Sequence record: PP400786
Direction: 5' to 3' (one strand)
Length of the DNA stretch: 64,000 nt
Origin: Escherichia phage FL12
In this document: piece by piece, positions 57,001 through 58,092 of the stretch
Layout of the letters: the number at the start of each line of letters is the position of its first letter
How positions within the stretch are numbered: the stretch's first letter is position 1
The notes under the pieces: model-generated
Database searches by the model: none
The model's input: the letters and a program-made list of their open reading frames with translations, nothing else
What the model was told of the DNA's origin: nothing
Translations under genes and position numbers: made by a program

Positions 57001-57304
57001 TTATTTACCTTTAATTACTTTAGCTGCTTCGATAGCCGCTTGCTGAAGGTCATCCATAGACATACCGAATTTAGAAGCAAAGTTATCAATTTTCTTTTCG
57101 ACAGCATTCAAAGGCTTTGCCTGTTTACCTTCATTAGCGCCAGGAAGAGCGAGAATACGCTCTTTGTCAATATAAAGGCTTACAAGTTTCTTACGGTCTT
57201 TATCGGACAAATCATGAAATGAATGGGCCTTTTTATTTATAGCGGGCTTCTAATTTACCTGCACTCACTCGCGCTTCAGTAATAAATTCTTTATATGTTT
57301 TCAT
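57001..57304 (-). pseudogene. internal-protein-like gene disrupted by a +1 frameshift
   Basis: ATG 57302-57304 encodes MKTYKEFITEARVSAGKLEARYK then TAA; the body (…SDKDRKKLVSLYIDKERILALPGANEGKQ…) continues in the +1 frame to 57001. Confidence 0.5.
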
Positions 57305-57367
57305 TTTTGTTTCCTTGTTTGTTTTGATAGAGTAATTATACCATATTAATACTTAAGCGTAAACAAT

Positions 57368-57628
57368 TTAAGCTTTACCGCCAGAAATAATTCCGAAGTT
57401 GTTAAAATCGTATCCAATATCGTCAACATCTACTTTAGGACTTGCTACAACATAAGCAATTTCACTACGTTTTGCATAGGTGTTGATTTCTTTACCATCG
57501 CCACCTAAGAAAAAGTACCCATTACGTTTTAATGAGCCAAAGTCTTCCGCATCACCAATGAAAGCTTTAACTTTAAATTTAGGACCTTTGGCATCTGCTT
57601 CAACGATAAATTCTTGATACATTTTCAT
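57368..57628 (-). CDS. internal protein (capsid-targeted), IPII-like position
   Basis: 86 aa; N-terminal capsid targeting sequence MKMYQEFIVEA. Confidence 0.6.
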   Translation of the reverse strand: MKMYQEFIVEADAKGPKFKVKAFIGDAEDFGSLKRNGYFFLGGDGKEINTYAKRSEIAYVVASPKVDVDDIGYDFNNFGIISGGKA

Positions 57629-57795
57629 TTTTCCTTAGTAAATTGATTTACCAAAGTATTTGTACCAAGTCGGGCGTTGAGCAATTTTTTATCTAAGCGT
57701 GCTTGACTTATCGCAATGGACGCTTCGGACGGGTCATAATTTCCTCCAAGTAGTTGATGAATGTATAGTATCAAAACCCTTGGAGGAAGTAAACA

Positions 57796-58092
57796 CTATT
57801 TTTCTGAAGCGCCTGAAATATATTTTTCAAGACGCTGTTTCATCAACGAGCCGTTCTTAGCGATTTCTTCCGGTTTATCGCACATACGCAACAAGGCTTC
57901 AAGCTTAACGATATCACTGGTGCGCTCAAATTTGCGAGTATCTATCTTACTAGCAAGTTCAGAAATACGTGCTAATAGACTTTCAGCTTCAACCAAAGCT
58001 GCACCTAGCTTAGTTGCAAATGTGTCAGTAGCTTCGTTAAGAATAGATTCTGATAAAAATTCACTATATGTTTTCATATATACGCTTTCCAA
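57796..58092 (-). CDS. internal protein (capsid-targeted)
   Basis: 98 aa; N-terminal [11 protein letters not shown]. Confidence 0.6.

Follow-up and report, generated by a model that had tools for sequence, protein, structure and literature searches.

This study analysed the internal-protein genes beside the lysozyme gene e of Escherichia phage FL12 (PP400786), within a stretch of 64,000 nucleotides that is referred to here as the window. It was observed that the flagged stretch, positions 57,001 to 58,092, consists of ordinary T4-like internal-protein genes, all on the minus strand and downstream of e, and the cluster is an ordinary T4-like internal-protein locus with the RB69-type arrangement e, IP-A, (denV, deleted here), IP-B, ipII, vs.8. 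The last 20 kb of the window display 95-96% identity over about 94% of their length to Tequatrovirus isolates (PTE-Eco15, FL44 and the Pu-Krd series). The phage record comparison returned no record identical to these 20 kb, and about 4% divergence separates the lineage of the window from the closest relative that has been sequenced. Besides the family matches given below, the gene identities are backed by synteny with the annotated loci of FL44, Pu-Krd-SF5, W143, Shf125875 and T4. The features of the locus, in the order of transcription, are as follows.

58589-58596 and 58576-58583, minus strand: TATAAATA, a perfect T4 late-promoter consensus, present twice just upstream of e
58074-58562, minus strand: lysozyme gene e, 162 aa (Pfam PF00959 Phage_lysozyme, E = 1.4e-13)
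57796-58077, minus strand: IP-A, 93 aa (phrog_3499 'internal head protein'; RB69 ORF127c type)
57741-57794, minus strand: early-promoter/stem-loop cassette (GTTTAC...TACTAT, 10-bp inverted repeat), which formerly served denV
about 57625-57744, minus strand: denV remnant (alignment with Pu-Krd-SF5, Shf125875 and FL44)
57368-57628, minus strand: IP-B, 86 aa, MKMYQEFIVEA... (phrog_2667; RB69 ORF125c type), intact
57335-57364, minus strand: Sigma-70/T4-early-type promoter (GTTTACG, 17 nt, TGgTATAAT), upstream of ipII
57001-57304, minus strand: ipII, frameshifted (phrog_7857 after repair)
57233-57304, minus strand: ipII leader ORF, 23 codons, MKTYKEFITEARVSAGKLEARYK followed by a stop
57001-57243, minus strand: ipII body, open in the +1 frame, with its stop at 57001-57003
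56950-56998: second early-promoter/stem-loop cassette, upstream of the vs.8-like gene
56348-56887, minus strand: vs.8-like gene, 179 aa (phrog_1488, E = 1.3e-78), the downstream bound of the cluster

As had been predicted, three leader-bearing ORFs lie next to lysozyme; they are on the minus strand. They had also been described as consecutive, and all three are there, but their order differs from the one given, running in transcription from MKTYSEF... (IP-A) through MKMYQEF... (IP-B) to MKTYKEF... (ipII), and the first two are separated by a 150-nt denV remnant, making the three genes not strictly adjacent. The true start of IP-A is the ATG at 58077, which overlaps the stop of e as ATGA, and position 58092, formerly given as the end coordinate, is an upstream TTG and not a real start. 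The homologues of e in the relatives carry the annotation endolysin or lysozyme, and the placement of the vs.8-like gene agrees with the synteny of RB69-type loci. Further downstream, the vs.7-like and vs.8-like genes (56022-56887) are separate ORFs of 126 and 179 aa in the window, and the same region is one annotated 858-bp gene in FL44 (L001 631-1488), with several uncompensated indels between the two genomes.

The gene denV, which encodes the UV-repair enzyme endonuclease V, has lost about 314 bp between two AATTATGxCCCGT microhomologies, with the junction at 57721-57744, and the remnant has a further 1-nt deletion. This junction is common to FL44 and to the metagenome contig L009, indicating that a natural denV-less lineage exists.

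The two TATAAATA copies upstream of e are probably late promoters, as their match to the consensus suggests, and the element at 57335-57364 is, by consensus match only, a putative early promoter of ipII. The denV remnant, ipII and vs.8 each follow an early-type promoter (GTTTAC...TATAAT-like). The inverted repeat of the cassette at 57741-57794 reads TTCCTCCAAG/CTTGGAGGAA, and the repeated cassettes flanking the ip genes share GTTTAC...TA(G/C)TAT. One more copy of TATAAATA was noticed at 57234-57241 on the minus strand, inside ipII and directly 3' of the frameshift, where T4 has GCTGTAAATAAA. PeSL cassettes have been proposed to shuffle accessory genes in the hyperplastic regions of T4-type phages (Arbiol et al. 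2010, PMC2839356), and the cassettes at 56950-56998 and 57741-57794 resemble them. Such PeSL-like cassettes would offer an explanation for the differing order of ip genes in T4, RB69-type phages, W143 and the window.

IP-A and IP-B had been put forward as divergent candidates; both belong to widespread families already annotated 'internal head protein'. IP-A matches phrog_3499 with E = 1.2e-46, and 496 phage records contain it; its identity is at least 99% in 132 of these and 100% in several. IP-B matches phrog_2667 with E = 4.5e-20 and is found in 217 phage records, with up to 98.8% identity. As judged from these families and from that of ipII, all three genes are already catalogued and the cluster itself is not new; the window adds no information on IP-A and IP-B, and the cluster matters little beyond correct annotation. 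The mature forms of IP-A and IP-B have near-neutral pI values of 6.3 and 6.4, against the basic 9.7 of IpII. The AF2 model of IP-A is helical (pLDDT 72.7, pTM 0.35), and a structure search with it returned no PDB match better than E = 7; the predicted model of IP-B is unusable (pLDDT 40.6). The homologue searches for structure prediction, in a set of 5.8 billion proteins, retrieved just 5 and 11 near-identical relatives, and the alignments were therefore too shallow for this purpose.

IP-B is intact in the window, and it is cut to 59 aa in FL44 (L001 2043-2222) and Pu-Krd-SF5 (L002 2047-2226) by a 2-nt insertion, TT to TTTT, at a site that corresponds to about 57485 of the window. These two relatives originate from Denmark (FL44) and Russia (Pu-Krd-SF5). 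Different lineages thus carry breaks in different members of the ip cluster.

Identity of ipII and the frameshift at codon 21

With one base removed, the third gene encodes a protein of 100 aa with identities of 92% to T4 IpII, across the full length, and of 99% to IpII of Shf125875, W143 and FL44. This repaired protein matches phrog_7857 from end to end (E = 1.2e-54). By sequence comparison, the third gene is an ortholog of T4 ipII. It is accordingly no 'divergent' internal protein, and the target of its T4 counterpart, single-chain GmrSD, has already been reported.

The lesion, as seen in an alignment with four relatives, is one extra C at codon 21, which turns GAAGCCGCT into GAAGCCCGCT. The extra base changes GCC to GCCC and falls within the plus-strand run GGG at 57244-57246. 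The leader frame meets a stop at the end of its 23 codons and the body lies open in the +1 frame, leaving the leader-body ORF not intact; the alignment thus confirms the predicted picture of a 23-codon leader frame that stops ahead of a body in another frame. The extra C was found in none of 186 phage records that were compared using a 47-nt query centred on the site, no record reaching 99% identity; every top match listed spans 46 bases with one gap, and the flanks are otherwise identical to those of the relatives. Exact-pattern scans of IMG/VR gave zero matches for the frameshifted 30-mer and likewise zero for the wild-type 30-mer, so that these scans are uninformative. Within the body, no in-frame ATG or GTG occurs before residue 81, and the sole early start candidate is a TTG at 57210, which is not accompanied by a ribosome-binding site. 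As written, ipII is a null allele or pseudogene that yields a 23-residue peptide, with a body that lacks the capsid-targeting sequence (CTS) and has no usable start.

It had been suggested that this member may depend on slippage. Programmed +1 ribosomal frameshifting, or slippage during transcription, would then have to occur at GCC-C to give the full-length IpII. The ipII body is perfectly conserved in its +1 frame, which speaks for this reading, and nothing else supports it. The extra base is private to the window, its count of zero among the 186 records leaving no conserved recoding site, and the context of the lesion, GAA GCC CGC TAT AAA TAA, has neither slippery nor slow-decoding features. 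By inspection under the established rules of +1 frameshifting, a tRNA-Ala paired with GCC could not shift onto CCC; the codon that follows, CGC, specifies Arg and is both frequent and quickly decoded; no Shine-Dalgarno-like stimulator lies upstream; and the polymerase would need more than a three-base run in order to slip. With neither conservation nor recoding signals, programmed frameshifting of ipII was rejected, and we consider its chance to be close to negligible.

A second way in which the gene might still act is that a leaderless IpII body is made in the cytoplasm from the internal TATAAATA (57234-57241) and the TTG at 57210, serving as a late inhibitor that is not packaged. The perfect late-promoter consensus just 3' of the lesion is in line with this, as is the observation that IPIII without its leader works when it is supplied in the cytoplasm. 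However, the same TATAAATA is present in intact relatives too, where it encodes A-I-N-K, and the TTG has no Shine-Dalgarno sequence before it, the absence of ATG and GTG up to residue 81 leaving no other early start. Moreover, a restriction inhibitor that is made late cannot protect incoming DNA. In both independent dead ipII alleles, the present one and the metagenomic one described below, the damage is confined to the first 25 codons and the body is unharmed; intact alleles, however, have a body that is just as well conserved, and its state simply reflects the recency of the lesions. Expression of a leaderless body was judged unlikely for want of a ribosome-binding site and a start codon, and we give it very little probability.

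We therefore suggest that the third gene be labelled ipII, either as frameshifted or with the remark 'sequence to be verified', and be presented neither as a new effector nor as a case of recoding.

A recent mutation or a sequencing error

Two readings of the extra C remain of consequence. In the first, which is the likeliest in our view and to which we give about an even chance, it is a real mutation that has recently knocked out a dispensable accessory gene. In the second, which we rate somewhat below an even chance, it is an error of sequencing or assembly, and the phage harbors an intact 100-aa ipII in an ordinary and fully functional locus. The third gene had been called a decaying member of the cluster, and this part of the original prediction is plausible, but with the data at hand decay is not distinguishable from a sequencing error.

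The whole window was compared with FL44, and the ORFs of FL44 were screened against the window by tblastn. Apart from the extra C in ipII, three private indels were detected.

about 41612: insertion of G, which breaks an nrdC.3-like gene
about 46175: insertion of T, which breaks a homing-endonuclease-like gene
about 10374: deletion of one base, which breaks an mrh-like gene

Besides these, the comparison with FL44 yielded indels that compensate one another within divergent patches, and intergenic hairpins that vary in length. The break in the homing-endonuclease-like gene was found again by the tblastn screen. In the 47-mer comparison at 99% identity or more, the indels near 41612, 46175 and 10374 were matched by none of 318, none of 66 and none of 497 phage records, respectively. 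An indel of 7 nt at 44680, flagged by the same screen against FL44, served as the positive control and proved to be a common polymorphism, with 78 records at 99% identity or more and the top matches listed at 100%. The three additional private indels signify either an indel-prone assembly or several fresh pseudogenes. Look-ups of the exact IP-B and vs.8-like proteins, made with a view to a second assembly of this phage, gave no entry.

The presence of four private frameshifts in 64 kb gives a hint of an indel-prone assembly. But for the single-base indel itself, the 47-mer around each site is the same as in dozens or hundreds of records, and the same 47-mer test does recover exact matches for the shared polymorphism at 44680. 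In ipII, the extra C is absent from every one of the records having this stretch (186 of 186). Three of the four indels lengthen a short homopolymer by one base, and in three of the four the base concerned is G/C, which T-even DNA carries in hypermodified form and which is known to trouble some basecallers. Against an origin by error, the affected runs are short (2 to 3, or 3 to 4 bases), unlike the long homopolymers where read errors concentrate, and the long A/T homopolymers of the window are undisrupted. In the comparison with FL44, the window's essential genes for replication showed no uncompensated frameshift, and all four private indels fall in dispensable genes (ipII and the mrh-, nrdC.3- and homing-endonuclease-like genes). 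Furthermore, in a lineage that is about 4% diverged, real lesions would look private too, and genuine lesions are known in ipII and in the cluster of other lineages, among them the inherited denV deletion and the truncation of IP-B. That the four indels are all in dispensable genes, together with the independently dead ipII of sewage contigs, gives a hint of real decay. IP genes are dispensable on laboratory hosts (PMC9026906).

These sewage contigs, which weigh most in this question, were obtained from an exact-sequence look-up of the 69-aa ORF of the ipII body, which led to three metagenome contigs, L009 (2850-3200; ERZ27280565), L010 (ERZ28614280) and L011 (ERR2241771). In all of them, ipII is dead via other lesions, namely a change of CGA to TGA at codon 12 and a deletion of A5 to A4 at codons 23-25. 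The ERZ28614280 and ERR2241771 contigs are identical across an overlap of 2,087 nt and are presumed to come from one sample, and the ERZ27280565 contig, which has a MEGAHIT-style name, differs at 8 of 2593 positions. The dead-ipII contigs are short-read contigs of sewage type and come from at least two assemblies, and no cultured phage record was found to carry the TGA/A4 allele. Since ipII is dead by different lesions in these contigs, the sequences indicate that its loss does occur in nature. The cluster in these contigs has ipIII in addition and runs e-IP-A-(denV remnant)-IP-B-ipIII-ipII.

A more far-reaching reading would be that the loss of ipII in wild T4-like phages is a repeated and adaptive event, the injected IpII being a liability on some hosts and the near-neutral IP-A and IP-B being replacement effectors against other targets. 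The cases that could be cited for such recurrent loss are the extra C of the window, the nonsense mutation and deletion of the sewage lineage, and the missing gene in T2/T6, and a conceivable liability is that some defence detects IpII and responds with cell death once the target of this inhibitor is blocked. The evidence for a recurrent and possibly adaptive loss, two independent cases, is thin, and we hold this reading to be improbable. If the frameshift is a real mutation, single-chain GmrSD would be expected to restrict the phage, and it would be a natural ipII-null strain that is ready for use as a control in work on this enzyme.

Leaders, proposed function and known systems

The alignment of the three ORFs displays M-K-[T/M]-Y-x-E-F-[I/L]-x-E at every N-terminus. 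Mutagenesis of IPIII assigned leader residues 4 and 7 to targeting and residues 8 and 10 to cleavage by gp21 (PMC9026906), which requires I/L-x-E in a leader of about 10 residues (PMC9026906). The residues Y4, F7, I/L8 and E10 are kept in the leaders of all three ORFs, and the earlier identification of these leaders as the T4 capsid-targeting sequence is borne out, as the residues needed for targeting and for gp21 cleavage are conserved. In the six-frame translation of the window, there are five instances of M[KR]x[YF]x[ED]F[ILVM]x[ED], each at the start of a minus-strand ORF, compared with a chance expectation of 0.01 (mean of 200 shuffles). The PHROG families to which all three proteins belong are already labelled as internal head or virion proteins (E = 1e-20 to 1e-54). 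A scan of the IP proteins with a local copy of Pfam gave only a weak match, confined to the leader, to DUF7412, and the newer families PF26874 and PF26861 surfaced solely through precomputed annotations.

The two other occurrences of the motif lie outside the flagged cluster. A fourth leader-bearing ORF at 62264-62830 (minus strand; 188 aa, MKTYAEFLTEAAKLPSE...; phrog_2280, of unknown function) is located just before the tRNA region, and its homologue in FL44 is labelled 'host specificity protein'. This ORF likely encodes another internal protein. The fifth, at 13935-14099 (minus strand; 54 aa, MKTYKEFIKEDMVAGDSGG...KKKKEESKEKEE; phrog_1823), adjoins the primase (gene 61) region, which we take to be a block of early genes, and this is an unexpected site for a capsid-targeting leader.

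With reference to T4, the ip genes would be transcribed together with e from the two late promoters and, in addition, from their own early-type promoters, with IP-A translationally coupled to e. The 10-residue N-terminal leader would dock each protein, through Y4 and F7, on the scaffolding core of the prohead, and the gp21 protease would then cut after E10; both the gp21 prohead protease and the gp22 scaffolding core are expected in this phage from its similarity at the level of Tequatrovirus. The mature internal proteins may then be ejected into the cell with the DNA, disarming first-line defences, and IpII in its intact form would inhibit the single-chain GmrSD (BrxU-type) type IV restriction of glucosyl-hmC DNA. 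The sequences show the gene identities, the lesion and its uniqueness, whereas we infer the packaging, cleavage, injection and phenotype by analogy with T4, and infer too that the lesion is real. For IP-A and IP-B, packaging and function are suggested by the leader and the family annotation; the literature yielded no report of presence in the virion with a processed N-terminus, or of ejection into the host, for the RB69 ORF125c/127c families.

T4 IpII has been reported to inhibit single-chain GmrSD (Silas et al., bioRxiv 10.1101/2023.04.06.535777), and IPI* inhibits the two-subunit GmrS/GmrD, IPIII is needed on ECOR17, and Bas37_0260, a new leader-bearing protein, inhibits McrBC. The idea that the diverse leader-bearing internal proteins are injected anti-defence proteins is long published. 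The original prediction of injected anti-defence effectors fits this literature in its general idea, but it is not new, and the proteins in question are members of known and widely annotated families. IP-A and IP-B are reasonable candidates for the defence-pairing screens that gave IPI, IpII and Bas37_0260 their targets.

Comparatively, the third gene of the window has the same leader as T4 IpII (NP_049734; Pfam PF26874 Phage_T4_IpII), but its frame is broken at codon 21 and a peptide of 23 aa is predicted. The gene order of T4 is e-ipIII-ipII-denV-vs.8, in contrast to e-IP-A-(denV remnant)-IP-B-ipII in the window. A closer likeness is seen to the Mosigvirus-type cluster, as IP-A and IP-B are essentially the same proteins as the RB69 'internal head proteins' ORF127c and ORF125c, and ipII is located immediately upstream of a vs.8 homolog in RB69-type phages and likewise in the window. 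In RB69-type genomes, denV lies between the ORF127c and ORF125c genes, the position from which it has been deleted here. Shf125875 displays the same order as the window, with e, an internal head protein ('similar to RB69ORF127c'), denV, an internal head protein ('RB69ORF125c'), IpII and vs.8. IP-A is also about 48% identical to genes annotated ipV, a name known from Yersinia phage PST. Beyond the leader, the IPs of the window have no sequence similarity to T4 IPI*, IPIII and Bas37_0260, but they share with them the N-terminal leader, the small size and the location in a variable region, and these three provide a functional precedent for leader-bearing proteins that neutralise defences on entry.
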